Made by a program: the position numbers and the translations under genes | Shown: positions 722-60,483 of the stretch, piece after piece | How positions within the stretch are numbered: position 1 is the first letter of the stretch | Layout: each line of letters starts with the position of its first letter | IMG/VR virus record: IMGVR_UViG_3300009008_000030 | DNA: 64,000 nucleotides | Source of the DNA: an uncultured virus (IMG/VR IMGVR_UViG_3300009008_000030) | Lineage: Duplodnaviria > Heunggongvirae > Uroviricota > Caudoviricetes | Direction: 5' to 3' (one strand) | Notes under the pieces: model-generated | The model's database searches: none | Seen by the model: only the letters and a program-made list of their open reading frames with translations | What the model was told of the DNA's origin: nothing

Positions 722-725
722 TGAG

Positions 726-2665: not shown

Positions 2666-2673
2666 GATCTCTC

Positions 2674-38610: not shown

Positions 38611-38873
38611 TGTCCATTCGTCAGTACGTCATGGTTGAGTGGAGAAGTGCCGTTGTCTTTGGTAAGGGGCACAGCCAAGATCTCTCCTGCCAGCCCGCCC
38701 AGGAAGTACCCTGCGGCACCTCCCATCCAACAGGGGCCACCTAGCCTACGATTCAGCTTGCATCCATAGATGGTCCCGGCTATCGCCCCTGTTACCCCTA
38801 AGATCAAGGGAGGAATATCTATGGGGATGCCCTGGTCTTGGGCCTCGGCAGCAGCGAGAACGGCACGGAACAT
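38607..38873 (-). CDS. Small glycine-zipper membrane protein
   Basis: Two Gly-rich hydrophobic segments. Confidence 0.6.
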   Translation of the reverse strand: MFRAVLAAAEAQDQGIPIDIPPLILGVTGAIAGTIYGCKLNRRLGGPCWMGGAAGYFLGGLAGEILAVPLTKDNGTSPLNHDVLTNGQ

Positions 38874-41675: not shown

Positions 41676-41856
41676 GTCGATCTCCTACTTTCTTGCGATT
41701 GGGGGTCAAGGCCCAGGTGACGGCGGCACGGAGACCCTCAGCGAGCGCAGCCCCAGCAAGGCCCGTTACCTCGGGGCGAACGCGCTCAAAGGCCGCAGAT
41801 GCAGCCTCCTTGGCCTTTTGGCCTTTTTCGTCCACCGAAATATCCTCGTCAGTCAT
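41668..41856 (-). CDS. Small hypothetical protein
   Basis: 62-aa ORF overlapping the next start. Confidence 0.5.
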   Translation of the reverse strand: MTDEDISVDEKGQKAKEAASAAFERVRPEVTGLAGAALAEGLRAAVTWALTPNRKKVGDRHE

Positions 41857-41906
41857 ACCCTATCCCTCGCGTCGTCTGTGCCCTGTGCGAAGCCTCTAGC
41901 GGCGTC

Positions 41907-42761
41907 TCAGAAGCCTCCGCGCTTATACCACTGAGCGGCGTTTTTTCGGTTCATCAGAGACCACAGAACCCCTCGCTCTGCTGCATTAGGCTTAGTGCGG
42001 CGAATACTCACATACTTCATATCGCTACGGTTGCGAGCGTTCTGGGCCACAACCTCAGCCTCACGCAGACTTTTTACCGGGAGAATGACCTTGTTCTTCT
42101 TGCCCCTTGCTTTGCCCCATCCCGACATGAAGGAATCGGTAGCTGTGACGTAGCCCCATGCAGACGGGATCTCCTCGGCGCTGGTGACGATGGCGGCGCG
42201 GCGGCCTCGGGCTGCACTACCCCTCTCACCCTTCTCTACGAGCTTGATCAGCTTTCGATGGTCAGTCCATGCTCTGCGAAGCTCAGGGGTATCCTTGAGT
42301 CTCCCTGCGTCAAGCAGTTGCTTGGCATAGACTCTGGTTCGGAGAATGGTGGTTCGCCAATCTCCGTCCCATTCCCACTTAACGGTAGGGGCTCGCCTCC
42401 CTTGCATGGCGCGGCGGCCTCGACCACGGCTCAGGCTTTGGAAATACTTACGGTGTTTGATCGCTCGACCTTTGGCCTGCGCCCGCGTCTTGAAGCCGCT
42501 GCCTCTCTTGACCACCTTCGATATTACATAGCGACCGTCAGGTTGCGGCTCACTGGTAGAGATGTTCTCAGTGATGACGAACCCAAAGGTTCCAGTCGGT
42601 TCCTTCTTTGTGCGCCAGCTATATAGCGGCACATCGTGGTAAAGCCGAGGGGTCAAGGGGTTGAGGGGAGGTGCGCCGTCAGCGCGGCGGCCTCGACCAC
42701 GGCTCAGGCCATAGGCGGCTGCGGCTCCGACTGCGGCCATTCCTAGCTTGGCGTAGCTCAT
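41907..42761 (-). CDS. Leader-bearing RGRRA polyprotein, 3 modules
   Basis: MSYAKLGMAAVGAAAAYGLSRGRGRRA; ATGA overlap with the upstream gene. Confidence 0.88.
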   Translation of the reverse strand: MSYAKLGMAAVGAAAAYGLSRGRGRRADGAPPLNPLTPRLYHDVPLYSWRTKKEPTGTFGFVITENISTSEPQPDGRYVISKVVKRGSGFKTRAQAKGRAIKHRKYFQSLSRGRGRRAMQGRRAPTVKWEWDGDWRTTILRTRVYAKQLLDAGRLKDTPELRRAWTDHRKLIKLVEKGERGSAARGRRAAIVTSAEEIPSAWGYVTATDSFMSGWGKARGKKNKVILPVKSLREAEVVAQNARNRSDMKYVSIRRTKPNAAERGVLWSLMNRKNAAQWYKRGGF

Positions 42762-43354
42762 AGTAGATCCCACCCCTCTTGTATCTTGTTCAGTGCAGCC
42801 AAGACGTTCTCAGGAGACCCCTTTAGGCGCTTACTCTCCTTGATCCAAACGATAACTGCGGGGTCGTTGGTTGAGTCAGAAAAGTTGATAGCCAGAGAAC
42901 CAATCCACGCAGATCCAGTCCTGCTCTTTTTGTCGAACCTGAGCCTGATGCCTCTGGCGCTGTATTTTTTCCTAAGTAGGGCAGCGAACTGCTCTGCTTC
43001 CCCGACATACCCATTAGCGCGGCGGCCTCGGGCTGTACTACCTCCCGCATCTTCCCAATCATGGTACTCCTGCAAGGAGATAGAGGGTTTGCCCCCAGCA
43101 GCCGCGAGAATCCTCTTGGCTTCGTGCTTGTAGCCTTCCGCTAGAGAGGGATCGAAAGACATCCCTCCGCTCTCTATGTCTTTCAACATGCGGTGAAGCT
43201 CTCTAATCCCTGGCGCACCCCCTCCGAAAGCGTCTGAGTAAGCCTGAGATCTCCCAAGCTCAAAGTTACTCTCGTCGCGGCGGCCTCGACCACGGCTCAT
43301 GCCATAGGCTGCTGCGGCTCCAAAAGCGGCCATTCCTAGCTTGGCGTAACTCAT
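42758..43354 (-). CDS. Leader-bearing RGRRA polyprotein, 2 modules
   Basis: MSYAKLGMAAFGAAAAYGMSRGRGRRD...STARGRRA; AGGAG RBS. Confidence 0.88.
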   Translation of the reverse strand: MSYAKLGMAAFGAAAAYGMSRGRGRRDESNFELGRSQAYSDAFGGGAPGIRELHRMLKDIESGGMSFDPSLAEGYKHEAKRILAAAGGKPSISLQEYHDWEDAGGSTARGRRANGYVGEAEQFAALLRKKYSARGIRLRFDKKSRTGSAWIGSLAINFSDSTNDPAVIVWIKESKRLKGSPENVLAALNKIQEGWDLL

Positions 43355-43374
43355 CTCGTTCTCCTACCCTTCCA

Positions 43375-44517
43375 TCAGTCCCAGGATATGCCAGCAGCTT
43401 TCATGTCCCGCTTGAAACCCGCCCGTAGCTTCGGCAATCGCAGCTTGAGCCACCGATCAAGAGCCGCAGGGTCTTTAGACATGATTTTTCCAACATCAGC
43501 ACTCTTGTCGCTGGGAAGCGCCCCCCACACCACCGTGGACTTGAAGTGCGCCTTGTGGCCTTCCCTAGCCCAATACTTCGCGTTAGGTCGATAGTGCATA
43601 GGCCCCGACGAAGGGCTGAACAGGTGCCACTTGATGAGCGGGCGCAGCTTCGGGAAGTAGCGCCTCACCATGCCGTGGAGTTGGCCCCCCGACACTTCTC
43701 GACCGTTGGGGGCGTATCCGGTTCCCGTAATAGAAAAGTAGGGTTCCCGGTTCCCCCTAAGAAAGTTCATTCCATACTCAGCTTGGAACTTGCCTTTTCT
43801 GGAGTACCCGGTGTCTGCGGGCACCTTCTCGGTTTTCTTCCTTCGGCTGGACCCGGCGGCCATGACCCGGCGGCCTCGGGCAGAGCTTCCTTTTGGCTTC
43901 ACCATGTAGGAGTGGAGTTTTCTTAGGTCAGAGTCGGAGAGGGAGTCGAGGTATACGACCGCCGTGGAACCTTCCCAGCCCATGTGGTCATGGGCGGCGG
44001 GGCCGATCATAATGCCGATTCGCCCCCATCCCTTGTCACTTCTGTAGTCAGGGTGCTTGCTCGACCAAAGCTCCTTCATCAGCTTGGTACGCGAAGATGT
44101 CGCAGCGCGGCGGCCTCGGGCGCGGCGACCTCGGTCCCTCACTAGATCATTGGGATAGCCGCCCCACCAGTCGATAATCCCTCTGAGCGACCCTGGAGTG
44201 ATTCGTCCCAGGAAGTCGTCCGGTTGGTCGGTGATAGCCAATACTGAGCCTATCGAGGTGAACACCTCGTCGTCGGGATAGGGATGGACGAAACTCAACC
44301 GCTTGTACACCATAGCGCCTCCCCCATCCTCTGGATTGGGAATGAAGTAGTCCTGCCCGATGGTTACGGAGGCGTTGTCGATGAACTCCCCTTCGGGGGT
44401 GTCGATGCTGTGAGGGCCTGATCCAAGACGGATTCCAGCGCGGCGGCCTCGACCACGGCTTAGGCCGTAGGCGGCTGCGGCTCCAAAAGCGGCCATTCCT
44501 AGCTTGGCGTAACTCAT
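43375..44517 (-). CDS. Leader-bearing RGRRA polyprotein, 3 modules
   Basis: Same leader, then RGRRARGRRA and GSSARGRRV. Confidence 0.88.
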   Translation of the reverse strand: MSYAKLGMAAFGAAAAYGLSRGRGRRAGIRLGSGPHSIDTPEGEFIDNASVTIGQDYFIPNPEDGGGAMVYKRLSFVHPYPDDEVFTSIGSVLAITDQPDDFLGRITPGSLRGIIDWWGGYPNDLVRDRGRRARGRRAATSSRTKLMKELWSSKHPDYRSDKGWGRIGIMIGPAAHDHMGWEGSTAVVYLDSLSDSDLRKLHSYMVKPKGSSARGRRVMAAGSSRRKKTEKVPADTGYSRKGKFQAEYGMNFLRGNREPYFSITGTGYAPNGREVSGGQLHGMVRRYFPKLRPLIKWHLFSPSSGPMHYRPNAKYWAREGHKAHFKSTVVWGALPSDKSADVGKIMSKDPAALDRWLKLRLPKLRAGFKRDMKAAGISWD

Positions 44518-44657
44518 GTGAGAGGCTTCGGGCGACCGCGAACGAGGGTGACGAGGCCGCTAATGGCCCCACTGGCCAGGAAGAAGGTCATCCAGGGGTG
44601 TTCGTAGATCCAACCCTCGTGACACACAGGGCCTTCGGCGCGTTGTCCATATCTCAT
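44514..44657 (-). CDS. 47-aa membrane peptide (below the ORF-track cutoff)
   Basis: AGGAG RBS; MRYGQ...PWMTFFLASGAISGLVTLVRGRPKPLT; ATGA overlap. Confidence 0.65.
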   Translation of the reverse strand: MRYGQRAEGPVCHEGWIYEHPWMTFFLASGAISGLVTLVRGRPKPLT

Positions 44658-44666
44658 GTCGATCTC

Positions 44667-45008
44667 CTAGTAGGCGAGCAGCCGTGCCTTCTTGGCACTA
44701 CGGTACTCTCCAGGCGTGGCAGCAATAGTCATACTGGCTTCTTGAGCATTGGGAAAGACGGACAGGAGTGCGCTACGCCCACCGTACCCCTCGTCAACAA
44801 AGCCCAGGAACTTGCCGCTGCGGTCATGGACGTACCAGCCTCGACGGGGGTTTCCGTTTGTATCGTGGCCTGCGTTGATCTTCTGCGCCCATACCTTGTT
44901 GCGCGAGATAACGGGGATGCCTTTGTACCGCCTACGCTCAGCAGGACCGCGAGCCGCACGGCCCCGGCACTTCGTAAACTTCCCTGCTTTCGTTCTGCAA
45001 CTGTCCAT
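44667..45008 (-). CDS. Single-module protein with Cys-basic leader
   Basis: MDSCRTKAGKFTKCRGRAARG resembles the leader of 41151..41675. Confidence 0.75.
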   Translation of the reverse strand: MDSCRTKAGKFTKCRGRAARGPAERRRYKGIPVISRNKVWAQKINAGHDTNGNPRRGWYVHDRSGKFLGFVDEGYGGRSALLSVFPNAQEASMTIAATPGEYRSAKKARLLAY

Positions 45009-45018
45009 CTTGATCTCC

Positions 45019-45453
45019 CTATCTAAGCTCTTGCGGAATGTACCAGGGTTGAGGCTGGTGGAACACCGCCGACTCTACCCGCAAGCGAGATTGCTCCTGG
45101 GCCTCGGCCCTGGCCTTGGCCACGGCCTTGACCTCACTATCCCTTGCAGCAAACGCCAACTTGATTTTCTGCACCGCTGCGCTGGGGTCTTTCGACCTAC
45201 GCCAACTGCGGGTGCCCGATGAGAAATGCGACTTGAACCGCTGCGCTCCCAGCTTATCCACCCACGGCTTCGGCACTCCCACCCACACCACATGCCCCGC
45301 CGGGATATTCCCCACAGCGGCCACAGACGGCCCTCTGAGGGCCTTGAGCGAGCCCTCCCTGGTCAGGGTGTACACGAGCGCGTCTGTGGCCTCTACGGCG
45401 CGCAGAAAGGCCCGGTCATGGGCTGAGAACACAATGGCAGCGACAGGGGTCAT
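45019..45453 (-). CDS. Hypothetical protein
   Basis: ORF inside the array, without leader or linker. Confidence 0.6.
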   Translation of the reverse strand: MTPVAAIVFSAHDRAFLRAVEATDALVYTLTREGSLKALRGPSVAAVGNIPAGHVVWVGVPKPWVDKLGAQRFKSHFSSGTRSWRRSKDPSAAVQKIKLAFAARDSEVKAVAKARAEAQEQSRLRVESAVFHQPQPWYIPQELR

Positions 45454-45459
45454 AGGGCC

Positions 45460-45798
45460 TCAGTAGATGTACTGCGCCATTCGGCGCACCATGTTGTGTT
45501 CTGCTAGGTCTAGGCCGCGAGGCCCCAGGATTTCTTCGATCTCCCAATCATTCTGTAGAAACTTGTCTCCTACGGCTTCTCCCTCGGGATCGAAGATCTC
45601 CAGGCCCACATACCCCATCCTCAGATTGGTAATCAAGACGTAGAGGTAGCCGTCGTCTCCCTTGAATACGTCGATGCCGTCGTTGGTCCCTGCGCCTATG
45701 GGGAGGGCATGACCATTTACCAAGACCTTGGTGGACGGCCCGTAGTGCCCTGGTTGCCAATACTGTTCCTTGCGGAAGTCGATGGAGCGAAGTTTCAT
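45460..45798 (-). CDS. Hypothetical protein
   Basis: GGAGG RBS and ATGA overlap; no leader or linker. Confidence 0.7.
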   Translation of the reverse strand: MKLRSIDFRKEQYWQPGHYGPSTKVLVNGHALPIGAGTNDGIDVFKGDDGYLYVLITNLRMGYVGLEIFDPEGEAVGDKFLQNDWEIEEILGPRGLDLAEHNMVRRMAQYIY

Positions 45799-46616
45799 CG
45801 CCGCCTCCTAGCCCGTCGCCCACTCATGGCGAACTCCACGTCCTCGACTGAGACATACATATCGCTGCCTCGGTCATAGTGTCGGCCCTTTCGGGGGTCA
45901 TAGTACAAGATCTTGCCACTTCGGTAGCGGAACGGCCCCTCCATGCCAGGGATGGGCGGCGGCAAGTCCTCGGCGGGCCTAGACACCACACCTTGCTTCT
46001 CCCATGCCTGCGCCACCAAAGCTCGCTTCTCGGCCTTCGACATAGCGCGGCGGCCACGACCAAACTCCCATCCAGAATAGCCTCCAAACTCGCTAAACTC
46101 CTCAAAGCGGGCGATAGCTCGATCTAAGGCCGCTCTTGCCTTGGGGGTGTTGGGTCGCAGTCCTTTGTGGCTTCGATAGAAATTGGTGAATCGGCTCTCT
46201 ACTCGGTATTGCTTGTCCTTCTTGTCAAAGACCACCATCACCTTGCCCCACGGCTCAAAGTGGCTAGATCTCAAGATCTCCACATCTCCCGCAGCGCGGC
46301 GGCCTCGGTCAGAAAAATCCCACCCGTATTTCTCGCGCACTTGCCCGATAAGAAGGTACGGGGGAGTACGCATATCAGCTTCGATTGCATCAGCGACAGC
46401 ACGAGCTTCTTTTGCAGTACGATAGCGGGGAGGGGTAACGTCAAAGGTTCCGGTGGTCCGTTCCTCAACCGTCACATAATAACGACCTTCTTTGCTACGG
46501 GCCAACGACACCACGGGATAGATACCAGGGCCTCGGGCACGACGGCCTTGACCACGGCTCAGTCCGTAGGCTGCTGCGGCTCCGATTGCGGCCATTCCTA
46601 GCTTGGCGTAGCTCAT
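45795..46616 (-). CDS. Leader-bearing RGRRA polyprotein, 3 modules
   Basis: MSYAKLGMAAIGAAAAYGLSRGQGRRA, then DRGRRA and GRGRRA. Confidence 0.88.
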   Translation of the reverse strand: MSYAKLGMAAIGAAAAYGLSRGQGRRARGPGIYPVVSLARSKEGRYYVTVEERTTGTFDVTPPRYRTAKEARAVADAIEADMRTPPYLLIGQVREKYGWDFSDRGRRAAGDVEILRSSHFEPWGKVMVVFDKKDKQYRVESRFTNFYRSHKGLRPNTPKARAALDRAIARFEEFSEFGGYSGWEFGRGRRAMSKAEKRALVAQAWEKQGVVSRPAEDLPPPIPGMEGPFRYRSGKILYYDPRKGRHYDRGSDMYVSVEDVEFAMSGRRARRRR

Positions 46617-47473
46617 CTCGGCACCCTGCCGTCCACAAGAGGAACGAGACGATAGCCCGTATACCTTTTCGCCTCAGCCAGAGTGCGGAAGTGTGGCCCC
46701 TTGCGGCTCCAACCCCAAGACCGACTCTGGAACAGGTAGGAGTTATGATAGACCGCCCAGCGCGTGGCCTCCCGGCCCTTCGACCAGACTCGCTCCTTCT
46801 TGATCAAGACGGAGCCGCCGTCTGAGGGAGTTCTCGACCACAGGTAGCTACCGTCTCCCTGACGCTTGAAGTCGGGCTTGTGGGCTGCGCGGCGGCCTCG
46901 GGCAGAGTGTCCCGCCTTGCGGGTAACGTGCAGCACCCACATTCCCTTGCCTTCGTAGTAGGCTTCTACCTGGGTGACTCCAGGGATACTCAGGCCAACC
47001 TGTTTAGCCAGGGGAGCGAGTCGGTCCTTCTGCGCTTCATATTCGTAGTCGTCCAAACCGTCGATGTTGGGACCGTGCAATTCGTACTTATTGGGGCCTG
47101 CTGGCTCCAAGCTATCGAAGGCGTCCATATTTCTACGACCTCGGCGGGTGGCGTGGTGTGCCTGATATGCCTCAAGGTGGTGAAGCGCCTCGGCTAGTTG
47201 GTGGCGAAAGTCTCTGCCTATCTCAACGGTCGCGGCTGCGGCTCGCTCGGCCTCGTGGTCGTAGTTCGTGTGCGTCGGGTCGGCCTCGGGGAGCCACATC
47301 GCATCGATGGTGGCTTGCGCCCCGGCGATCTCGCAGTCGAGGCGGGAGATCGCGTCTCGGAGGGACTGTGGCGAAGAGTGGTCAATCTGGCTGGCGCGGC
47401 GGCCTTGACCACGGCTCAGTCCGTAGGCTGCTGCGGCTCCGATTGCGGCCATTCCTAGCTTGGCGTAGCTCAT
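46613..47473 (-). CDS. Leader-bearing RGRRA polyprotein, 3 modules
   Basis: Same leader (TGATG overlap), then RRGRRN and HSARGRRA. Confidence 0.88.
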   Translation of the reverse strand: MSYAKLGMAAIGAAAAYGLSRGQGRRASQIDHSSPQSLRDAISRLDCEIAGAQATIDAMWLPEADPTHTNYDHEAERAAAATVEIGRDFRHQLAEALHHLEAYQAHHATRRGRRNMDAFDSLEPAGPNKYELHGPNIDGLDDYEYEAQKDRLAPLAKQVGLSIPGVTQVEAYYEGKGMWVLHVTRKAGHSARGRRAAHKPDFKRQGDGSYLWSRTPSDGGSVLIKKERVWSKGREATRWAVYHNSYLFQSRSWGWSRKGPHFRTLAEAKRYTGYRLVPLVDGRVPR

Positions 47474-48993
47474 CAAAGGTACCTCTGCACGATGGGCCAC
47501 AGAGCGTCTTTATGCTCCGATAGGTCAGCGAGCGTCATGCTAGGTGCGTCAGGGAGCGCCTGAGCCAACTCCTCGACCAGCTTCCTGGCTGCTGGCTTTC
47601 CCCGGACGGTACCGAGGGCAATCCCGCTCGGCAAGTGCGTCACCGACCAGTAAAGGCGACCACTTTTCCACATGCCAAAGCCAGAGTCTCCGTAGATTTC
47701 CCCGTCCTTGTCGAGCCTTTCCCCCTGCGGGCTTGTGAGCGAGAGGGTGCCGGGTCGCCACGCAGACCTGCTTGCGCTTTTCTTGCGCGGCGTGACCACG
47801 GCAGAGCGGCGCAGGGTCAACCAGCCACGCTTGTACCCTACGGTCAAGGGGAGGTCATGGAGATAGGGATCTACCGCTCTCAACGACCGCTTGCTCTTGA
47901 GATTCCGCAAGATGGTGCCTGCGGCGGCCTCGGCCTGGGATTTTGTCAGAGCGTCGGTCCAGACGAACCAGCCCTGCCCCCGCCACAACAAGATGCGTCC
48001 GTCCTTCGCCTTCTTGGCCCCGGCTGGCTTGAGCAGGAGAGAAGCAGAGAGGTGTTCCTCCAGCCCACTGTACTCACGGCCTGCCCCCATCGCGGACTGG
48101 TGAGCATCGTAGTCGCGTCCCTTGTAGGGTTCGTGATGCTCCTGCCGCCGACCGATAGCGCGGCGGCTTTTGGCAGATCGATAGGTTCCATCAGAGCGCA
48201 GACGCTCTTCTCGATCCATGTTCAAACAAGCAGCCACAGCCCGACGCTCATCCCAACCCTCGCCACGCACCTTGCCGGAAATGCACTTGCTTACACGCTT
48301 GTTGTGCTTGCGGCCTCGGGCACTCCGGCCCTTCTTGAGCAAACCCAGCGCCTCGGCGCGGCGTACCGTCTTGGTTGCGTAGGCCCCACGCTTTACCCCG
48401 GTCGCTGCGTCATACCCGGCCTTCCACTCAATGCCGTGACGTTGGCTGATCTTACCCCGCCTGTACGCAGTCGAGGCCGCGACGATCTTCTTTGCCTTCT
48501 TCCCTGCCGCAAACCCAGCGCGAAAGTCGTCGTCCCATGCAGCTTTCCACTGTATGGGCGAACCGAAATCATCGACTTCGTATCCGGCAGGTCCAGCACG
48601 GCGGCCTCGGGCCTCGTGCCCTCCCAGCCGTGCCCAAGGGTCTCTGTGGTAGCTCCTCGGTGGTGCGTGGTGAAAGGTTACCTCCTTCCTGGCCGTGTCA
48701 AAGACCTCGACGGTGCGCGTGTCGTCCTCTGCGATCACCTCGTCGGCCAAGTCCCACGCAGCTTGCTGATCATCGGTACGCAGGATCACCTCGGGACCGC
48801 TGTAGTCAAGTCCGTAGCGTTGCTGATCGCCCATCACCGACATGCGAACGTGATAACGCGAGGGGCTGATCTTCTTGCGGCCCCTGTTCTGGCCCCAGCC
48901 CTGGCGCATCTTTTCTTCGGACCTCGCCGCCCAGGCTATGAGCCCGACTCCGGCGAGAGGCGCGATCCAACGTCCTGCGCTCATCACGACCAC
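47473..48993 (-). CDS. RGRR-linker polyprotein with variant hydrophobic leader
   Basis: MSAGRWIAPLAGVGLIAWAA, then NRGRKK, EARGRRA and SARGRK. Confidence 0.85.
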   Translation of the reverse strand: MVVMSAGRWIAPLAGVGLIAWAARSEEKMRQGWGQNRGRKKISPSRYHVRMSVMGDQQRYGLDYSGPEVILRTDDQQAAWDLADEVIAEDDTRTVEVFDTARKEVTFHHAPPRSYHRDPWARLGGHEARGRRAGPAGYEVDDFGSPIQWKAAWDDDFRAGFAAGKKAKKIVAASTAYRRGKISQRHGIEWKAGYDAATGVKRGAYATKTVRRAEALGLLKKGRSARGRKHNKRVSKCISGKVRGEGWDERRAVAACLNMDREERLRSDGTYRSAKSRRAIGRRQEHHEPYKGRDYDAHQSAMGAGREYSGLEEHLSASLLLKPAGAKKAKDGRILLWRGQGWFVWTDALTKSQAEAAAGTILRNLKSKRSLRAVDPYLHDLPLTVGYKRGWLTLRRSAVVTPRKKSASRSAWRPGTLSLTSPQGERLDKDGEIYGDSGFGMWKSGRLYWSVTHLPSGIALGTVRGKPAARKLVEELAQALPDAPSMTLADLSEHKDALWPIVQRYL

Positions 48994-50417
48994 CAGATGT
49001 TTCCACCTTCGCCTTGCGAGAGGTCTTTAATGGCCTCGACCCACTCATCGTAGGTCTTGACCGAAGGGGAGAGAGCATAGACGCTGCTGCTGTACCAAAA
49101 GTCGGTCTCACCAAAAGGCTGGGGATGGCCCTCAACTGCGTCTACATAGCGGTGCCAGCCGCCATAGTAGGCGGGCATTTCTGACATCCTTGTAACCACG
49201 ATCTCATAGCCATAGCCGTTCTTGAGCAGCCACTTGTTGAGTTGCTTCCACGTTCTCGGGGCCTTACCCCCGTCAGCATGACGGGCGCGGCGACCTCGGA
49301 ACTTCTCTTTCTGGCGGTACTTGGCCTGGGCTTTGGGATCGAGCAGTTCTTGCAGGGTGGTTTCGCCTCGGGTGACGGGGCTTGCTTCCCACCCGATCTC
49401 GCGCTTCGGAGACCCTTTGCGGCGACCTCGGGCAGAGCGGCCTTTGGGAGCCTCAATCACGATGGACAAAAGCTGGTCTGGGGTGCCCTTCATGGCATCT
49501 ACCCAATGTCCAGGCTCTCCCTTCTTGAAGGTGCCCGCAGGCACCCACGCTTCGGTCAGCAACCACGCGATCTCATCCTTGTCGAGATTCCACTGGTGAT
49601 CCCATATCCTGGGAGAAACTCGATAGAGAGTTCCCCGGTTATGCGAAAGACCAAAGGTCGCGGGAAAGCGGTTTATAGCTGCTTGGATCGCCTTGTCTCG
49701 GGCCTTGCTCTCTCGGCCCAAGCGGGAGTCAGAATAACTCGTGTCTCGTCGTCTTGGCCTTGACCCAGGTAGGGATACTCTCTTGGCGGCGGGCTTCTTA
49801 GCAGGACGACGGGCACGGCGGCCTCGGGCAGAGCTTCCCTTCTTCGCGCTGCGGCTATAGACCTCTTTCATCCCCCCACCCGGCAAGACACGCTCAACTG
49901 TGCCTCGCTCGGCGTCTCCGGTGCGGATAGAGTGATCGACCGACTCCACAGCATTGATGTTGCCCTCGCGCCCATACTCGCTCCAGCGGGTAGGGGAGAT
50001 CCCCTTTCCGTAGTGCAAGGTCACGATGTAGCGGTCCTGATGCTTAGCTCGGCGGCCTCGGGCAGAGTGGCCCCAGCCGGGTGTGGTCGCATAGTAGTGC
50101 TTGCGAGCCGCATCTACAGCGGCCTTGAGGGTCTTGAAGCGCCTCTTGAATGTTGTGGACTCCCACCCATCGTCGCCACGGAAGGTCACCCTCACCGCCC
50201 ACTTTCCTTGGGAGGAATCAACTCCGTAGGAAGGGCCTTCTGCGGAGTCCCAACGATACTTAGATTCGCCTTGCCGAGTCTGCCGACGCCAGTGCTTGGC
50301 ATCGGGCATCGGATCTCGCCTGCCTCGGGCAGATTGGCCTTGACCCTCGCTCAGGGCATAAGCGACGAAAGCCAAACCTCCTAGCGCCAAAACAGGCTTA
50401 ATGTCTCCAGCGGCCAT
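48984..50417 (-). CDS. RGRRA-linker polyprotein with variant hydrophobic leader, about 5 modules
   Basis: VLALGGLAFVAYALSEGQGQSARGRRD plus four more linkers. Confidence 0.85.
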   Translation of the reverse strand: MAAGDIKPVLALGGLAFVAYALSEGQGQSARGRRDPMPDAKHWRRQTRQGESKYRWDSAEGPSYGVDSSQGKWAVRVTFRGDDGWESTTFKRRFKTLKAAVDAARKHYYATTPGWGHSARGRRAKHQDRYIVTLHYGKGISPTRWSEYGREGNINAVESVDHSIRTGDAERGTVERVLPGGGMKEVYSRSAKKGSSARGRRARRPAKKPAAKRVSLPGSRPRRRDTSYSDSRLGRESKARDKAIQAAINRFPATFGLSHNRGTLYRVSPRIWDHQWNLDKDEIAWLLTEAWVPAGTFKKGEPGHWVDAMKGTPDQLLSIVIEAPKGRSARGRRKGSPKREIGWEASPVTRGETTLQELLDPKAQAKYRQKEKFRGRRARHADGGKAPRTWKQLNKWLLKNGYGYEIVVTRMSEMPAYYGGWHRYVDAVEGHPQPFGETDFWYSSSVYALSPSVKTYDEWVEAIKDLSQGEGGNIWWS

Positions 50418-50419
50418 GA

Positions 50420-52233
50420 CTACCTCCTAAAGATCGCAACAAGCAACAGCAACCCGACCAACCCGCCACTAATGCCGACACCTGCGGCTGCTGCGGGAGG
50501 CAAGCTCGCCCACCAGCCTTTTTCTTCTTCGCCGTTACCATTACCCCGCGTTTCGTCCCAGGCGTCATGCTCAGCCTGAGCAACCTCCTGCTCGATGCTT
50601 GGAAGTCCCTGCTGCGCTCGCCGCTCGTTCTCGGCGTCGTGGGCTTCCTGGGCCTCTCGCTCGCGCTCCATATCTTCTGAGAGATCCTCAAAGAACCCCC
50701 CATAGCTGGTCGCGAGACGGTAGTGATCTCCAGGGCTCAGGCGATACATCAGACTACCTTCCGCTGAGCTTGTAGACACCAAAGGTCAGGCCAGAGACAC
50801 CCACCGCTACAGCACTGACCTTGATCCAAGGAGCCAAGCCAGCCCACCAGCCTTCGTCCTCGGCCTCGTCATCAGAGAAGTCATCCTCGTACTCGTCGCC
50901 GTTCCCCGAGGTGTCACCCCCACCGTTGCCAGAGGTTCCACCGCCACCGTTCCCCGAGGTGTCGCCTCGCCCGTGCTTACGCCAGGGGTTAAACAAGCTG
51001 GGGTCAGCAAGAGAGATAGTGGATCTCCCTAACAACCCTGGATCAACTCCGTAGCTGACGTTCTGTTGCAAGTGGTACAACTCAGAGGGGGTATAGGTTC
51101 GCATAGTCTTATCTTCCTATCAGTTTCCAAAGTAAAAATGCGCCTAGACCCACGCCCCCGACCCCCATACTCACCTTGGCCCAGGTGGGGAAGTGGAAGG
51201 GCTCGACTTTCTGTAGCCATGCTTCAAGATCTTCGGGAGAGGCCCTGCTGCGGTAGTGCCCTAGCTCGACCATGCCTCGGATCGACCAGTTAGCTTCTTC
51301 CCACTTCGCCTTGGTTTCAGGCTCCAGGGTGTCGAGCCACGCATCAAACTGCTCGGAGGTCATGTTCTTGGGAGAAGGCTGAGGGAGACCTCCGGTGGTC
51401 TGAACTCCGAGATCTCTCATACGAACCGCTCGTGGATCTGCCACCAAGGTTCCGTAATGAGACGCGGCGACCGTCCCGGTGGCAGGGTGGTCCCGAAACC
51501 AGTTAAGCCACTGAGGCAAGGTCCGTACTGGAGGGCTTCGCCGGGTAAAGGGCCGCCGATAGGTGATGCCTGCGAGGTTTCCCGGCACCCCTGACCACTG
51601 AGAGACGTGGGATGGATGCTCAAACGGGTCAAACCCACCCACAGCGTCTCCAAACTTCAAGTGAACGCCGTGAGCAAGCCCACCCACAGGAACTCTACCC
51701 ACGCCCCCAGGCCCAGCAAACCAACCGATGATCTCCAGCGGTTGGTTTCCCCTGTGTCTAAGCCGGATACTAGGTTTCCCGCCGTTTAGTGTTGAAGTCG
51801 CCCTGTATCGCTTACCAAGAGAGGGCACATCTACCCACAGGGGGCGCTTTACTCCATAGCTTCCCAGCAGGTGACCGGAGTAGCGCCTCCACCGACCTGT
51901 TCGTACCCTACGGTAGCGACCTGCACTCCTCGGTCCAGCAGGTCTTGCTCCGTAGCTTACCGGGACGCCGCTGTATTCCTGCCAGTGTGAGATCATGTTG
52001 AGCTACCTCCGCGTGAAGCGCACCGCCAGGAGCGCCCCCACGATAATGCCAGTAGTGAGCGTGAGAGCATAGGAGGTCAGAGAGCCTCCGGTGCCATTGT
52101 TGGTCTCGGCCCCGAACTGAGCATTGGGGGCGAGCATCAGCCCGTAGGCTGGGATGCCCTTGTTGCCTACCGGGCTAGACGGCTTCGCGTAGCTCTGGAG
52201 GGTGCTGGCGAGGTTGGGGTCAAGGGCTGGCAT
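50420..52233 (-). CDS. Four putative virion membrane proteins with C-terminal TM (50420-50782, 50754-51104, 51109-51996, 52003-52233)
   Basis: Each ends in a Gly-rich hydrophobic helix plus basic residues and carries a YG motif near the N-terminus. Confidence 0.7.
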
Positions 52234-52239
52234 CCTGCA

Positions 52240-53295
52240 TCAGTACCTCGGGCCACGCATAGACATGAGCCCCCATATCCCGAGACCTGCTACCGCCGCA
52301 ATAGCTGCCGTGCGGCCCGGTCGATCTACCACTTCCTCGGTGAACCAACCGCCGTTCTCGCTGCCGTTCGCGGCGTCTCCATTAGCGTCCACATCGTTAA
52401 AATCAAAATCGGTAATGTCGCGTGCGACCTGAGAACCATAAGAGGTATGCCCCAACGCCTGCATGTTGGCGCAGGTCAAGGGATACCGCTTGCAGAAGAT
52501 GGTATCTGACATTTCAGGCAAGGTATTGGGAGGCACCTCGGCTACGCTTCCCACAGGGGCCGCTGAGGCCGCAGAGACGGCTCCATAGCTGTAGGTGGAC
52601 CCAGGACCAAAGATACGGTTTGTAGCGGCTCTCGCGCCTGCAAGGGCTGCTCCTGTGGCTTGTCCATAAGCGCCTTGGTAACGTGCCTTGCGCCCCCTCG
52701 CGTACCTGCTGACGCTCGCATTGACCTTGCGCTGAGCGCGGCGAGCCTTGGCCGCTTGTAGCCGTGCCGTGCGTGCAGGCTTGCCCTTCCTAGCCACCGG
52801 GGTCCGATACTTCGCTCCCGTTTGACGGGCATGGTCGCTTCCCTGAGTCTTGAGTTCGTTCATCAGACCCACGGCCTCCATCATATTGACGAAAGGCTGG
52901 CCCATAGCGCGGAAGTCGTTGAGAACATCGTCTCCCGGTACGGGGAGTTGGCCCCGTCGAAGCACGACTGTTTTGCTGCTCGACACCATGAGCGGGAAGA
53001 TCGCCATAGCCACCGGGGCTAGGCTCCCTCCGGCAGCGCCGATTCCCGATCCGGTAGTGGGATACCATGCGTGGACGATGAGCGATGAAGGTCGATCAGC
53101 TATGAACGGAGGTAAAGGGAGAAACCTCTTGGTCAAGACCGTGACCTGACTTCCCGCCACAGGACCAACGAAAGGCCCACCCGCCAGAAAGACAGGGAGC
53201 CCCGGAGGGTTGGGGGGAGAGGGGAACTGGAGAACCTCTAGCGCGATTGCGCCAGGGACACGGATATTGACGGTGTGCCGAACTGGAAGGGGCAT
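52240..53295 (-). CDS. Putative virion protein (beta-rich N-terminus, basic middle, C-terminal TM)
   Basis: AYG/SYG motifs; ends AAIAAVAGLGIWGLMSMRGPRY. Confidence 0.65.
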   Translation of the reverse strand: MPLPVRHTVNIRVPGAIALEVLQFPSPPNPPGLPVFLAGGPFVGPVAGSQVTVLTKRFLPLPPFIADRPSSLIVHAWYPTTGSGIGAAGGSLAPVAMAIFPLMVSSSKTVVLRRGQLPVPGDDVLNDFRAMGQPFVNMMEAVGLMNELKTQGSDHARQTGAKYRTPVARKGKPARTARLQAAKARRAQRKVNASVSRYARGRKARYQGAYGQATGAALAGARAATNRIFGPGSTYSYGAVSAASAAPVGSVAEVPPNTLPEMSDTIFCKRYPLTCANMQALGHTSYGSQVARDITDFDFNDVDANGDAANGSENGGWFTEEVVDRPGRTAAIAAVAGLGIWGLMSMRGPRY

Positions 53296-53346
53296 GAGGG
53301 GCTCCGGTGCAAGTGAGGAACAAAGCTCGATCTAGCGAAGGCCCGA

Positions 53347-53381
53347 TGCCCTTGCTCCCCGTCAGGAGGGAGCGAGGGGCA
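53347..53381 (-). terminator. Stem-loop downstream of the basic protein gene
   Basis: tgcccttgctccc...gggagcgaggggca. Confidence 0.4.
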
Positions 53382-53399
53382 CCGGACCATCAAGATCAA

Positions 53400-53840
53400 C
53401 TAGAAGCGCCTCGACCGCTTGCTGCCCTTACGGCAACCACCGGACTTGAGCTTGTCTGTCCACCGACCCGTCTTCTTGCTCACGCACACGAAACCGGAAC
53501 CTGCGCGGCGACCTCGGTTGGCAGCAGCCCTTTTCTTAGCCTTCCCACGGCAGTACGGCTTCACCGTGTAGGTGATCGACTTGGGCGTCTTGAGCAACTT
53601 CCCGGTTCTCTTGCTCTTGACCTTGATCTTCTTACCCTTGACCGTGTAGCCGCTGATCTTGACGGTATAGGGGCTGGAACAGCCACCCCTCTTACCCCGC
53701 TTAGCGGCGTAGCCACGCTTGCGGCCTGTGGCGGCGTCCTTGTTGCGGCGAGATCGGTTGCTGTCTTGCGGGCAGCGACCACTCTTGAGAGGCGACTTCT
53801 TGAGTCCGGTCTTGGTGTAGCAGAGCTTCCGGCTGGCCAT
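53400..53840 (-). CDS. Extremely basic Lys/Arg/Cys protein, candidate DNA-condensing core protein
   Basis: Almost no acidic residues; contains NRGRRAG; AGGAG RBS. Confidence 0.65.
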   Translation of the reverse strand: MASRKLCYTKTGLKKSPLKSGRCPQDSNRSRRNKDAATGRKRGYAAKRGKRGGCSSPYTVKISGYTVKGKKIKVKSKRTGKLLKTPKSITYTVKPYCRGKAKKRAAANRGRRAGSGFVCVSKKTGRWTDKLKSGGCRKGSKRSRRF

Positions 53841-53951
53841 TGTCCTGTTCTCCTAATTGATTGACGCCGGAGGCCGGGTCAAGTTGATTGAAGGGAGTGT
53901 ACGCCACTTGGATCTCTAAGTGTAGTGATCCTACGCATCTTCCCACGCATG

Positions 53952-54719
53952 TCAGATCTCTGGTTCCTCAAAAGGGTCCAAAGGAGGGGCGGTAGCCCGC
54001 TCAGGGCGAGCTAACCAAGTTCCGTAAAGAGGGGGAAGCAACACGCGGGCCGTGACCAATACCGCTGTCCCGCCGATAGCCCATTTCAGCCAGGGGGGCC
54101 AGCCCTTGTCGGGCTTGCGGAGCAGACCACCCTCAAAGACCACATCGCCTTGCTCTCCTGGCGTGGCAGTCCATTCGCCTCCGGCTCGGGAAACTTCCGC
54201 ATCGTCTCTTGCCTGACGCGCCTTCTCTGTCTCTCCCTGTGCTGCATACCACTCACTGACTCGCTGCAACGCCTCATCGCGCACCATCTGCGCGTGGGTC
54301 AAGGCCGCTTCCCAATCCTGGCACTTGGCCTTGTAGTCCCACTGATCTATCCAATCGGCCTCAGCCCGCCCATTGTCCAGGCAGTAACGATAGGTAAAAA
54401 CAGGCATCCCCAAGAAGCCGCCGATCTGACTATCGTCCCGTAGCGCGGCCACGACCGCCTCGTTGGCGTTGCTAAGGGTGGTGAGCATGGCAGCAGGTAT
54501 GTCGTCATTCCCGTACCAGCGGGTTTTGATTCGCTGGTACTCCTGCATGATGTGCTTCTCAAGCGCGGAGATCGGAAGCTCTGGAGGGTGGTCTCCCCGA
54601 TAGCGACGGGCAAAGCCAGGGGCGTAGGTACCGCCGTATCCACTAACGTAGGAAGGCGGTAAGCCTACAACTGCCGCCGCAGAGCCGGGTGAGATCTCAG
54701 TTAGGCTGAGGCGGCGCAT
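53952..54719 (-). CDS. Putative virion membrane protein with C-terminal TM
   Basis: GWPPWLKWAIGGTAVLVTARVLL. Confidence 0.65.
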   Translation of the reverse strand: MRRLSLTEISPGSAAAVVGLPPSYVSGYGGTYAPGFARRYRGDHPPELPISALEKHIMQEYQRIKTRWYGNDDIPAAMLTTLSNANEAVVAALRDDSQIGGFLGMPVFTYRYCLDNGRAEADWIDQWDYKAKCQDWEAALTHAQMVRDEALQRVSEWYAAQGETEKARQARDDAEVSRAGGEWTATPGEQGDVVFEGGLLRKPDKGWPPWLKWAIGGTAVLVTARVLLPPLYGTWLARPERATAPPLDPFEEPEI

Positions 54720-54721
54720 CC

Positions 54722-55426
54722 TTAGAGACCTGCCAGGAAGAACACTACGTTGACCCCGATGTTGGAGGACACGGTGCCTGCGAGGGTACGAAGGGGCTGA
54801 CCTGCCACGGCGTTGACCACGAAGGTGGTAAAGGCCACACCGCCGCTCACGTTGTCAAAGGAGGTGAAGGTCAAGACACAGTTGGCCTCACAGACCATCT
54901 GCGCGGCCCCGTCAGGAACGGGAGTATTGGCCGCAGCCACCAGGGCGGTGATGGGCGAGCGCAGCAAGCCAGCGTCGGGCTGGGCGGGGAGTGCATCGAC
55001 CCACTGAATCCGCAGCGGGAAGTTCATGTCCGTACCGATGACGGTGGACTTGCTCTCCTGCACGATCTTAGCGTTCTGATACTGGCCCAAGGCCAAGGTC
55101 ACAGGAGTTCCCGGTCCTGCTACACAACGCCGGAACGCTGCACCGCCGTTGGAGTCACCGACTGTGATGTTGAGCACCGAAGATGTGGCCAAGGTTTGAT
55201 CTACGAAGCCACGAGGCTGGTCAATCACCGCACCGAGATAGGGACGGTTGGTGAATGGGTTGAGGGGCGGTGCGCCGTCGAAGAGCCGGTTGAGCGTCGG
55301 CGCGGCGATGGAGAGACCACGCGGGTACTGTGACCAGCGTACTCCGTCGATGGTGGGGTCGTTAGGTCCGAAGTGGCCTTTGTAGACCCGCTCTCCCGGT
55401 CGGTGGATAAATGGATCTTGGCTCAT
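54722..55426 (-). CDS. Beta-rich putative structural protein
   Basis: Start MSQDP by ATGA overlap; beta-strand-like patterning. Confidence 0.55.
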   Translation of the reverse strand: MSQDPFIHRPGERVYKGHFGPNDPTIDGVRWSQYPRGLSIAAPTLNRLFDGAPPLNPFTNRPYLGAVIDQPRGFVDQTLATSSVLNITVGDSNGGAAFRRCVAGPGTPVTLALGQYQNAKIVQESKSTVIGTDMNFPLRIQWVDALPAQPDAGLLRSPITALVAAANTPVPDGAAQMVCEANCVLTFTSFDNVSGGVAFTTFVVNAVAGQPLRTLAGTVSSNIGVNVVFFLAGL

Positions 55427-55812
55427 GCGATAGCTCCCATGCCGCCCTCGCGGGAGGGGTCGATGTATTCCACGCCAGGAACCCCCTCCACCTGCACGAC
55501 AACGTGCCACAGACCCGGCTGGGCCTGATAGGCCACAGGACGGGCTGGTATGCCCGCAGAGATAAGCTCACTGGCTACAGCGGTGGTCAAGTCCTCGCAA
55601 TCTCCGGTGCCCCTGGTCTTGACCTGTTCCCAGGTCAGCCATTCTTCATTGGGGTCGGCTTTGCGGTACTTGATGGTGCCGTCTTGCAGGCCCTTGAGGA
55701 CAGGGAGCTTCCCTACCTCTCCGGCGTCTGCAATCTGCATGAGATCACTCTGCACCAACCCGGCCAGTACCCCAGCCGCGTGTCGCGGGTCGAGGTCCAT
55801 GACAAGGCGCAT
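55423..55812 (-). CDS. Transglutaminase-like cysteine protease
   Basis: GDCEDL (Cys), GIPARPV, WHVVV (His) and YIDPS (Asp) form the triad. Confidence 0.82.
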   Translation of the reverse strand: MRLVMDLDPRHAAGVLAGLVQSDLMQIADAGEVGKLPVLKGLQDGTIKYRKADPNEEWLTWEQVKTRGTGDCEDLTTAVASELISAGIPARPVAYQAQPGLWHVVVQVEGVPGVEYIDPSREGGMGAIA

Positions 55813-55838
55813 CGCTGATCTCCCTAACGGTCACTCGC

Positions 55839-59391: not shown

Positions 59392-60483
59392 ATGTGCGCC
59401 GATACCAACAAACTTCGTAGGCGGTTCTGCTCGGCCTGCGCTGCCGTAGTCCGTAGCGGATTGGCGGCCTGCCCCTCGTGTGGCAACACCGCCATGACCA
59501 CGCGCTGGGTGCGCCCAACCCGGCAATCCCGTGCGGCCTCTGTAACGCCCGCATTTCCCTTCCACGGGGTCCAGTGGCCCGAGGGGGTGACCGTCGCTCT
59601 GTCAGCGTCTTTCGGTGTAGGAAAATCCTCATCTGCTGCACTGCTCGGCAATCCCGGCTCAGATGGTAGTCCTCCCATGCTGAAAAACTGGATCACAACA
59701 GAACAAGACCCCACTCCGGTCCAGGCGATGTTCAAGCGGCTCAAGGTGCCGTGCCCGCAGATATGGGCGGCTGACCCTCTCGACCCTGTGGGCTCGGTCA
59801 AGCGAGCGATTCGTACTCAGGTAACGGGGGCCGGGGCCTTGACCGTTCTGGACTCCACTACCCCTCTCGGCATCGACGGTGCGGTGGAGACAATGAACTT
59901 CATTGTGCAGGACTGTCTCAACACAGGGCGACGAGCCATGATGATCTCGCAGCAGAACAAGCAGAAGGAAATCCTCGGCAAGATCGCTCTGGCCTTCATC
60001 CCTGACATTGTGATTGAGATTGACGTTGACCAGTTTGGGCGGCGGCGTCTGCGCGTCTCTAAGAACCGCCACGGGCCTCCCAGCACTACCTACTTCCAGT
60101 TTGGAGAAGAAGGCAAAATCTTGCAGCCCGACTTCACCACCGTCGCTCATAGCGTCGAAGGGGCAGTCATGGACATGCAACTCATCCCCTACGGCCTCCA
60201 TATCAGGGGCGGCAAGTGGGACGGCTTGCTGAGCGCCCTGGACACCCACAGGCTCCTTCCTGACCTGCCAGGGGTAGCCTCAGCCGCTATCAAGACGGGG
60301 GCCACCGCCTGCGGCTTCCTAGCCCCTCCTGATGAGCCCGCTCGCAAAGCTCTCGCAGAATCCCACGGCTTGCGCTGGCTCGATCTTGAAGAAGGAGTAG
60401 ACCTCCTAGCAGATGCACGGCGGCGAGGGCGACAGCCCGCTGCTCCCCCTGAACTCGACCCCCATGAGGATCTTGCACTATGA
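59392..60483 (+). CDS. RadA/Sms-like RecA-family ATPase, divergent and without a recognisable Lon-like domain
   Basis: N-terminal CxxC...CPSC zinc finger, Walker A FGVGKSS, Walker B VLDS, and KNRHG matching the RadA KNRFG motif. Confidence 0.75.
   Translation: MCADTNKLRRRFCSACAAVVRSGLAACPSCGNTAMTTRWVRPTRQSRAASVTPAFPFHGVQWPEGVTVALSASFGVGKSSSAALLGNPGSDGSPPMLKNWITTEQDPTPVQAMFKRLKVPCPQIWAADPLDPVGSVKRAIRTQVTGAGALTVLDSTTPLGIDGAVETMNFIVQDCLNTGRRAMMISQQNKQKEILGKIALAFIPDIVIEIDVDQFGRRRLRVSKNRHGPPSTTYFQFGEEGKILQPDFTTVAHSVEGAVMDMQLIPYGLHIRGGKWDGLLSALDTHRLLPDLPGVASAAIKTGATACGFLAPPDEPARKALAESHGLRWLDLEEGVDLLADARRRGRQPAAPPELDPHEDLAL

Follow-up and report, generated by a model that had tools for sequence, protein, structure and literature searches.

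A minimal LapG-like cysteine enzyme encoded among capsid-type genes of an uncultured virus: a candidate virion-processing endopeptidase

Jelly-roll viruses of the eukaryotic branch, which includes adenoviruses, virophages, polintons and giant viruses, characteristically encode dedicated cysteine proteases, and we know of no prokaryotic membrane-containing jelly-roll virus (PRD1, PM2 or P23-77 types) that has been shown to use a maturation protease. The adenovirus protease (adenain; MEROPS C5, clan CE) recognises a short glycine-containing site code across many particle and basic core proteins, and the catalytic order of clan CE is His-Glu/Asp-Cys; adenain-type proteases are described as conserved in polintons and virophages. 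In tailed phages, prohead proteases of the T4 gp21 and HK97 gp4 type remove propeptides or scaffold-like parts during maturation. Here we describe a gene for a 129-residue cysteine enzyme in a 64,000-nucleotide stretch of DNA from an uncultured virus (IMG/VR record IMGVR_UViG_3300009008_000030), referred to as the window, for which a role as maturation protease or cross-linking enzyme had been proposed from the sequence alone (the original prediction).

Enzymes with a transglutaminase fold are known from several other settings. The calcium-dependent, periplasmic proteases LapG and DvhG (BTLCP family; MEROPS C93; PF06035) serve in adhesin release, and their activity requires a Cys-His-Asp triad as well as a calcium site beside the active site; in DvhG this site is formed by D316 and E318, on either side of Cys317, and the D316A/E318A double mutant is inactive (cited part of PMC13090378). 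Both proteases cut the sequence [T/A/P]AAG between the two alanines, and a di-arginine version of the site resists cleavage (same part of PMC13090378). The pseudomurein endoisopeptidases PeiW and PeiP of methanogen phages and prophages (MEROPS C71) carry wall-binding repeats and act on the archaeal wall polymer at lysis (cited part of PMC10318531). BTLCP genes of tailed river phages are described as moving between viral clusters and are interpreted as host-adaptation or auxiliary genes (cited part of PMC11283719). SSIP-1 is a tailless icosahedral membrane-containing phage with a PRD1-adenovirus type of architecture and two capsid protein types (cited part of PMC6356626).

We estimate a probability of roughly 45% that the enzyme is a virion-processing endopeptidase of a particle module that cuts at aromatic-glycine sites, resembling the adenovirus protease in role although built on another fold.

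The enzyme, its fold and its family

The original prediction described a minimal 129-residue protein with a Cys-His-Asp triad on a transglutaminase fold, and both parts of this description are borne out. The open reading frame (ORF) starts with ATG on the minus strand (Table 1) and encodes the motifs GDCED (residues 70–74), WHV (102–104) and DPS (118–120). The catalytic codons, all on the minus strand, lie at 55597-55599 (Cys72), 55504-55506 (His103) and 55459-55461 (Asp118), and the codons at 55591-55602 include those of the acidic neighbours of Cys72, namely Asp71, Glu73 and Asp74. The stop codon shares nucleotides with the start codon of the following gene (ATGA at 55423-55426), implying translational coupling of the two genes, an arrangement present in the window and in locus L029. 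The protein is acidic, with 11 Lys/Arg vs 18 Asp/Glu residues. A chance ORF was considered and rejected on account of sequence conservation, a confident structural model and a Shine-Dalgarno sequence.

The fold is supported by profile, model and structural comparison. PF01841 (Transglut_core) matches residues 46–108 with a marginal pass (23.1 bits against a cut-off of 23, E 9.1e-5), and many homologues carry the same precomputed match. The AlphaFold2 model, built from an alignment of 25 homologues (alignment A1), has a predicted local distance difference test (pLDDT) score of 91.1 and a predicted template modelling (TM) score of 0.88. In this model, Cys72 opens the helix 72–85, His103 is located in the strand 101–108 and Asp118 follows that strand, so that the predicted arrangement is that of a papain-like core, with Cys at a helix start and His/Asp on later strands. 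Residues 13–30 form a confident helix of the fold, preceded by 12 residues that hold two Asp; inspection of the first 30 residues, with no dedicated predictor run, gave no evident signal peptide.

A Foldseek search of the Protein Data Bank (PDB) with the model returned LapG, TgpA, putative cysteine proteases, PeiP/PeiW, CPR-C4, TG2 and PNGase. In the VIA fold search, ranks 1–34 all belong to the transglutaminase/papain-like superfamily, with 3kd4_B as the top match (Z-score 8.2, root-mean-square deviation (rmsd) 3.8, 115 aligned residues), followed by PeiW (8jx4_A; Z 7.5, rmsd 4.2, 100 aligned) and PeiP (8z4f_A; Z 7.3) in second and third place, and further down by TgpA (6.1), factor XIII (5.9) and LapG (5.7). 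No clan CE structure was among the listed fold matches.

At the sequence level, the single enzyme sequence found nothing meaningful in the PDB and no PHROGs family, whilst the family profile reached the LapG chains 4u65_E and 4fgo_A alone (E 0.019). The profile alignment places W58...G70-D-C-E-D-L of the enzyme on W-x13-GDCED[YF]A of LapG, and the D-C-E calcium-site motif of BTLCP/C93 thus has its apparent counterpart in D71-C72-E73-D74. PeiW and PeiP gave no sequence-level match in either the single-sequence or the profile PDB searches. We therefore read the enzyme, judging by its sequence, as a LapG-like minimal endopeptidase, although it falls below the Pfam bar for C93 (PF06035; 13.2 bits against a cut-off of 27, E 0.077), and we infer peptidase rather than transferase activity. 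A LapD-like gene was not found among the Pfam-scanned ORFs of the window.

The family is large. A word-indexed search found 37 homologues of 95–156 residues, all metagenomic and none informatively named, and an exhaustive profile search extended the family to 2581 cluster representatives at E <= 0.001, 999 of them at 1e-10 or better. Cys72, His103 and Asp118 are invariant in the 25-sequence alignment, and the full triad is present in 180 of 191 profile-aligned relatives, the 11 exceptions being for the most part fragmentary or split in the alignment; 183–184 of the 191 retain D71, E73 and D74. Retention of the triad and of the acidic residues indicates that catalysis is under selection. A non-catalytic structural protein was likewise considered, and was rejected given the triad's presence in 180/191 relatives. 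Pfam found no domain in the extensions of 25 longer forms (9 + 16) other than a sub-threshold intein match, and a cell-wall-binding domain is absent from both the 129-residue enzyme and these 25 forms. Two side cases (P0185, P0058) stand apart: one relative has the sub-threshold match to an intein splicing domain (31.4 bits; cut-off 35.8) together with Ala in the aligned Cys column, and another consists of tandem enzyme domains, the first copy of which has lost Cys and His.

Searches of catalogued viruses gave little. Neither the enzyme nor the neighbouring 518-residue candidate capsid protein described below had a tblastn match in 50,697 INPHARED phage records. Scanning IMG/VR with the enzyme alignment found six distant loci in other gene contexts, and scanning it with the capsid alignment A3 found no relative. 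A scan of genome contigs gave four short contigs of metagenome-assembled genomes, with no host and no integrated copy. DNA nearly identical to the window occurs in marine and seawater metagenome runs of three studies, and no RNA run was among the listed sequencing runs with window DNA. A literature search on Helvetiavirae-like metagenomic viruses returned, among the papers listed, no description of this group of viruses, which current viral catalogues seem to have missed.

The capsid-gene neighbourhood and the aromatic-glycine signature

Gene order was surveyed in 60 metagenome loci carrying the enzyme gene. Of the 38 loci that include 1.5 kb or more of upstream sequence, 26 have a capsid-like gene there in the same orientation, and of the 20 that include 4.5 kb or more, 14 have a gene for a P-loop protein on the other strand; downstream, tblastn detected a gene for a beta-rich protein in 14 of the 44 loci with at least 0.7 kb on that side. 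The misses are mostly the most divergent loci, where single-sequence tblastn is weak. The place of the enzyme gene between capsid genes is constant across relatives down to ~31% identity. Since all loci were fetched through the enzyme gene, these figures show a fixed position and not indispensability. The placement among structural genes given in the original prediction finds indirect support in a conserved capsid-gene neighbourhood and a jelly-roll-like 518-residue neighbour; the neighbours have no Pfam or PHROG match. We read the enzyme gene as a core gene of the particle-assembly module in a large undescribed group of viruses, which are probably tailless and membrane-containing, with jelly-roll-like capsid proteins.

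The candidate major capsid protein consists of a helical domain (residues 2–97), a disordered Pro-rich linker and two beta-sandwich domains (147–295 and 333–485), with a model pLDDT of 69.9. The first beta domain aligns with the satellite panicum mosaic virus coat protein (1stm_A; Z 8.2, rmsd 3.9, 124 aligned residues), an iridovirus capsid protein (Z 6.8), vaccinia D13 (Z 6.2) and SPV1 (Z 5.9), and cellular beta-sandwiches align at similar Z, making a jelly-roll capsid protein likely but not proven. Foldseek with the whole model found generic tandem beta-sandwich matches alone (TM < 0.2), the first wide VIA list was filled by the N-terminal helical domain, and a search of the ESM Atlas gave no useful match.

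Both halves of the protein match the same stretches of relatives. The protein appears as an internal duplication of a jelly-roll-like domain, which in distant relatives is encoded by two or three separate tandem genes (L029:6727-9899, L026, L021 and L032); within a single group of viruses, one-domain and two-domain jelly-roll capsid proteins may thus form a series from split to fused genes. Residues 1–143 contain a helical domain like a three-helix (MIT-like) bundle (Z 9–11, common for helical folds), followed by a variable Pro-rich disordered linker and an invariant G-Y-S-x-A-G-G...P-P-G-x-G arm. This helical domain may be a built-in scaffold-like domain.

A candidate cleavage signature was sought in 13 particle-module proteins of the window (2,700 residues), with 500 shuffles for comparison. 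The pre-specified dipeptide YG occurs 17 times vs 9.06 expected, a count reached in 6 of the 500 shuffles. The tripeptide SYG occurs seven times vs 0.50 expected and this was reached in none of them, a figure that overstates significance as SYG was singled out after the sequences had been seen. Five SYG sites and one GYGG site lie in the products of the six genes at 50420..54719, mostly within the first 50 residues, and most of these products have a C-terminal hydrophobic anchor. The positions of individual sites are listed in Table 1.

The signature recurs at the N-termini of homologous proteins. Homologues of the GYGG-bearing product in L007, L010 and L013 each have two [FY]G within ~20 N-terminal residues, and counterparts of the 152-residue membrane-type protein in L009, L021 and L029 start with [FY]G-bearing peptides. 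The beta-rich downstream protein has an N-terminal [FY]G-P-[ND] that is kept in relatives, with [FY]G-P-S in L029. In both the GYGG-bearing product and the beta-rich protein, the position of the signature is kept while the surrounding N-terminal sequence has diverged.

Capsid proteins with complete N-termini were compared in 24 relatives (L019 was omitted as a duplicate of L020). An [FYW]G lies within the first 50 residues in 13 of the 24, vs 23 of 104 control windows of the same proteins, and an acidic residue stands just before it in 11 of those 13 (15/104 in the control windows). The motif is found in 13 of 16 long forms, which have the helical extension, and in none of 8 short forms; the usual long-form N-terminus consists of Met, an acidic run, [FY]G and then a basic helix.

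In some relatives the enzyme domain is fused to acidic/basic tails, which are rich in [FY]G (1000 shuffles each). Such tails contain 15 [FY]G vs 4.6 expected in P0178 (913 residues; reached in 0/1000), 8 vs 2.5 in P0171 (617 residues; 1/1000) and 7 vs 1.7 in P0180 (360 residues; 0/1000), and in P0060 the count was not significant (5 vs 2.5; 79/1000). In L029, separate downstream proteins are similarly rich, with 14 vs 4.3 in a 1069-residue protein and 11 vs 3.9 in another. Complex prediction for the enzyme (with alignment A1) and residues 1–40 of the 152-residue membrane-type protein gave a score of 0.00 (mark 0.32, controls not run), which counts neither for nor against binding.

Table 1. Positions of the enzyme gene and of the surrounding features in the window
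Feature	Position	Strand	Basis or remark
LapG-like cysteine enzyme gene, 129 aa	55423..55812	minus	ATG-started ORF, PF01841, AlphaFold2 model
Shine-Dalgarno-like GGGAGA	55819..55824	minus	read from sequence, 6 nt upstream of enzyme ATG
Beta-rich protein, 234 aa from ATG at 55426	54722..55426	minus	next gene after enzyme
Three small acidic Gly/Ala/Thr-rich genes, 124, 127 and 133 aa	55839..57019	minus	between capsid and enzyme genes
Candidate major capsid protein, 518 aa	57085..58641	minus	19 homologues (alignment A2), predicted model
Small membrane-type protein, 152 aa	58645..59103	minus	directly upstream of capsid gene; SYG at residues 5-7, GYG at 12-14; relatives start alike
363-aa protein, N-terminal zinc-ribbon-like stretch and Walker A-like GVGKSS	59392..60483	plus	divergent; weak Pfam Zn_ribbon
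Particle-module gene	50420-50782	minus	SYG at residue 26
Particle-module gene	50754-51104	minus	SYG at residue 17
Particle-module gene	51109-51996	minus	SYG at residues 14 and 46
Particle-module gene	52240-53295	minus	
Particle-module gene	53400-53840	minus	
Particle-module gene	53952-54719	minus	GYGG at residue 27
Genes with (S)ARGRR(A) arrays and shared Ala/Gly-rich leaders	41151..50417	minus	motif count
Three further array genes	2-4029	minus	included in RGRR count
Lysis-type block	38092-41141	minus	

Many small neighbour proteins have a hydrophobic C-terminal anchor, as would be expected with an internal membrane. The beta-rich protein may be a vertex or penton protein; at L012:1252-2482 its gene is present in two tandem copies, both with an [FY]G...FFG-P-D-N N-terminal signature. 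The 363-residue protein may be the packaging NTPase (nucleoside triphosphatase); Pfam gave no family beyond the weak Zn_ribbon match, and no PDB relative was found. The three small genes between capsid and enzyme genes are weakly alike and fast-evolving (best pairwise BLASTP E 0.049 between the window copies), and two of their counterparts at L009:7013-8099 are clear paralogues (E 2e-10). The product of 53400-53840 is a protamine-like protein of 146 residues with 49 Lys/Arg (34%) and 6 Cys, and in L007, L010 and L013 its homologues again adjoin these genes. It could be a core protein that condenses the genome.

Elsewhere, the window encodes a family A DNA polymerase, a D5-type primase-helicase, an SNF2 helicase, a PD-(D/E)XK nuclease, a resolvase, DnaJ and a topoisomerase. 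No tRNA gene was found in the window, and its Pfam and PHROG scans recognised no portal, terminase or tailed-phage capsid gene and no prohead protease of the T4 gp21 or HK97 gp4 type. The minus-strand block from 41 to 59 kb is nearly without database matches. The enzyme had been proposed as the sole protease-like gene besides the peptidoglycan (M15) peptidase, which is true of the ORFs that were scanned, 73 with Pfam and 67 with PHROGs; most of these ORFs have no match, so that a further protease could be hidden in the window. The window is shorter than the whole genome, since a cluster member lies on a contig of 74,264 nucleotides; homologues of the enzyme are located on contigs of 60–110 kb. 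The lysis-type block comprises the M15 peptidase, two GDSL/SGNH hydrolases with N-terminal hydrophobic stretches, and an endolysin-PHROG protein of 301 residues with a C-terminal anchor.

Arrays of the motif RGRR form the other conspicuous feature of the window. RGRR occurs 33 times in 14 proteins vs 0.50 expected, a count reached in 0/500 shuffles. The motifs lie ~80–100 residues apart, and several array proteins have a near-identical Ala/Gly-rich leader. The modules between the motifs are unrelated small domains, some of which match phrog_5423, phrog_13298 and phrog_7884, all of unknown function. The array proteins look like polyproteins or DNA-tethered cargo. Both FG and YG are present inside the leader, which may be removed at its YG by the enzyme.

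Virion processing and its alternatives

If the enzyme is a virion-processing endopeptidase, it would be made in the cytoplasm as a minimal cysteine endopeptidase and would cut at SYG in the window virus and at acidic-x-[FY]G in relatives. Short N-terminal propeptides would be removed from membrane-anchored and capsid-associated proteins, and in relatives basic DNA-binding segments would be freed from acidic pro-regions. The enzyme would act during assembly, and calcium may gate its activity. Papain-like enzymes prefer large hydrophobic side chains at P2, and a site with [FY] at P2 and Gly at P1 would suit this preference. Virion processing is favoured by the fold, the LapG-like signature, the retained triad, the constant place of the gene in the capsid block, the motif counts, the fusions to [FY]G-rich tails and the homologue in SSIP-1 that is annotated as a virion protein.

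A number of observations weigh against virion processing, in addition to the after-the-fact choice of SYG. YG had been named in the original prediction as a possible target of the enzyme, and the YG and SYG counts, the capsid N-termini and the fused tails favour such a link indirectly, whereas every step from motif to cleavage site is one that we infer. The broad motif [FYW]G is not enriched in the 13 window proteins (30 vs 26.0, reached in 120/500 shuffles), and the window's own capsid protein lacks the N-terminal motif, as do those of L009, L053 and L056. Each beta domain of the capsid protein also ends in acidic-x-aromatic-Gly (residues 294–299 and 485–489), and the acidic-x-[FY]-G that closes each jelly-roll-like domain is nearly invariant in alignments A2 and A3; at these positions it may be structural, a motif for folding or assembly and not for cutting. 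Relatives without the enzyme gene are invisible to a survey whose loci were fetched through that gene. A calcium need of the LapG type fits the low-calcium cytoplasm poorly. In wider comparisons, the family profile finds the gp34 ORF of phage SSIP-1, discussed below, and the label 'structural protein' given to gp34 fits an entry enzyme equally well; distant enzyme relatives in tailed-phage contigs adjoin lysis genes (L003, L004), and the BTLCP genes of tailed river phages are read as horizontally moving auxiliary genes (cited part of PMC11283719).

An extended form of the processing model is possible but doubtful. In it, a very large and unrecognised lineage of bacterial viruses, tailless and membrane-containing and with jelly-roll capsids, would use an aromatic-glycine code, and the enzyme would be their maturation protease. 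The enzyme would strip tags from membrane proteins and free protamine-like segments from acidic pro-regions; the two-domain capsid precursor would perhaps be cut after each jelly-roll domain, and a calcium gate would let the enzyme fire only in the particle or after release into seawater.

Other roles for the enzyme have to be weighed against virion processing. PRD1 has virion lytic enzymes, which offer an analogue for a virion- or lysis-associated cell-wall endopeptidase that would open the peptide cross-links in the wall of the host during entry or exit. The high ranks of PeiW and PeiP among the fold matches, the endolysin-like or holin genes beside the distant IMG/VR relatives (L003, L004) and the annotation of SSIP-1 gp34 as structural are in its favour; yet the window already has a lysis block at 38–41 kb, 14 kb away from an enzyme gene that lies among capsid genes, the 25 longer forms have [FY]G-rich acidic/basic tails as extensions instead of a wall-binding domain, and the sequence signature suggests a LapG-type protease that acts on proteins, leaving a wall enzyme unlikely. 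That signature would also suit a host-directed or auxiliary LapG-like protease, which after delivery or lysis would cut a host surface or periplasmic protein such as an adhesin or receptor, the suggested ends being a block of superinfection or the release of cells. LapG and DvhG are known for adhesin release (cited part of PMC13090378), BTLCP is the most frequent 'auxiliary' gene in river phages (cited part of PMC11283719), a calcium-dependent enzyme would work outside the cytoplasm, and window DNA is present in marine and seawater runs. However, auxiliary genes sit variably, whereas this gene has a fixed place between capsid genes; some relatives have the enzyme domain fused to particle-type tails, and inspection of the first 30 residues, the only check made for a signal peptide, revealed none. 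Very little weight is therefore given to a host-directed role.

The enzyme could also act on particle proteins in another manner or at other sites. Bacillus Tgl cross-links the spore coat, and a true transglutaminase could stabilise the capsid or membrane proteins through Gln-Lys isopeptide bonds, an option already included in the original prediction. The fold and the Cys-His-Asp triad are common to factor XIII, TG2 and TG3, and Pfam places the enzyme in Transglut_core, but at the level of sequence the PDB yields LapG proteases alone, with the calcium motif around Cys also aligned, the Z-scores to real transglutaminases (at most 5.9) lie below those to proteases and isopeptidases, and neither the motif pattern nor the fused tails would be explained; we consider cross-linking improbable. 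Cleavage of the RGRR linkers of leader polyproteins had likewise been proposed, and in that case any aromatic-glycine processing would be secondary or absent. The arrays are real, the enzyme is the sole recognised protease-like gene besides the M15 peptidase, and an acidic enzyme would face basic linkers. Against this, the expected co-occurrence of the enzyme gene with arrays did not materialise: no in-frame ARGRRA-type array was found in any of nine metagenome loci with ~10 kb downstream of the enzyme gene (L026, L029, L035, L037, L048, L055, L056, L060 and L061, with L029 read ORF by ORF), so that the gene is far more widespread than the arrays. The contigs of close relatives are too short to reach the array region, and one of them, locus L007, has NRGRRA where its basic protein begins. 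Relatives with and without arrays are almost alike around the active site, and in LapG/DvhG the acidic residues beside Cys bind calcium and the di-arginine site is resistant (cited part of PMC13090378). The proposal of RGRR cleavage is thus not supported by these comparisons, and we give it scant credence.

Comparison with known systems

The fold and the enzyme class are already known. With LapG/DvhG the enzyme shares the fold (4fgo_A, Z 5.7), the Cys-His-Asp order, D-C-E(-D) around the catalytic Cys and an upstream Trp. It differs from them in being ~60 residues shorter, viral, encoded among capsid genes and without a LapD-type partner, and its candidate aromatic-glycine site contrasts with the [T/A/P]AAG of LapG. 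PeiW and PeiP are, like the enzyme, phage-encoded transglutaminase-fold cysteine enzymes. The BTLCP genes of river phages are mobile (cited part of PMC11283719), whereas the enzyme gene is fixed in a capsid-gene block. Prohead proteases of tailed phages have the role in maturation that is proposed for the enzyme, but they are serine proteases, have the herpesvirus assemblin fold and occur in portal-bearing capsids.

A distant homologue is present in the cultured phage SSIP-1, where the family profile aligns the Cys, His and Asp with the gp34 ORF (JN880423; E 7.2e-9, 30.8 bits). GenBank JN880423 annotates gp34 as a structural protein, and its gene is just ahead of other structural genes. SSIP-1 gp34 differs from the enzyme in its length of 304 residues, with extra N- and C-terminal parts, and in having D-C-D where the enzyme has D-C-E-D; nothing in the SSIP-1 record matched capsid profiles A2 and A3. 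The second-best BFVD match to the enzyme is a 304-residue protein (TM 0.64), equal in length to gp34.

Among the papers listed, the literature search found none that ties a transglutaminase-like enzyme to jelly-roll capsids or virion maturation, and no conserved capsid-module protease of the transglutaminase fold with a site code in prokaryotic jelly-roll viruses. The family is not rare, with its 2581 cluster representatives in a group that the INPHARED and IMG/VR searches did not find. If virion processing is correct, a simple sequence code would allow mature particle proteins to be predicted for a large, unseen fraction of marine viruses, and the enzyme gene would be a marker for finding these viruses.

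The nearest analogy in role is the adenovirus protease, which is also a cysteine protease encoded together with jelly-roll capsid genes. The enzyme differs from adenain in its fold, in its Cys-His-Asp order, in its prokaryotic hosts and in its putative site code, and the two have no homology. Virion processing by the enzyme would provide a second, independent case of protease-driven maturation in jelly-roll viruses, and under the extended form of the model adenovirus-style maturation would have arisen independently on another protease fold in prokaryotic viruses.

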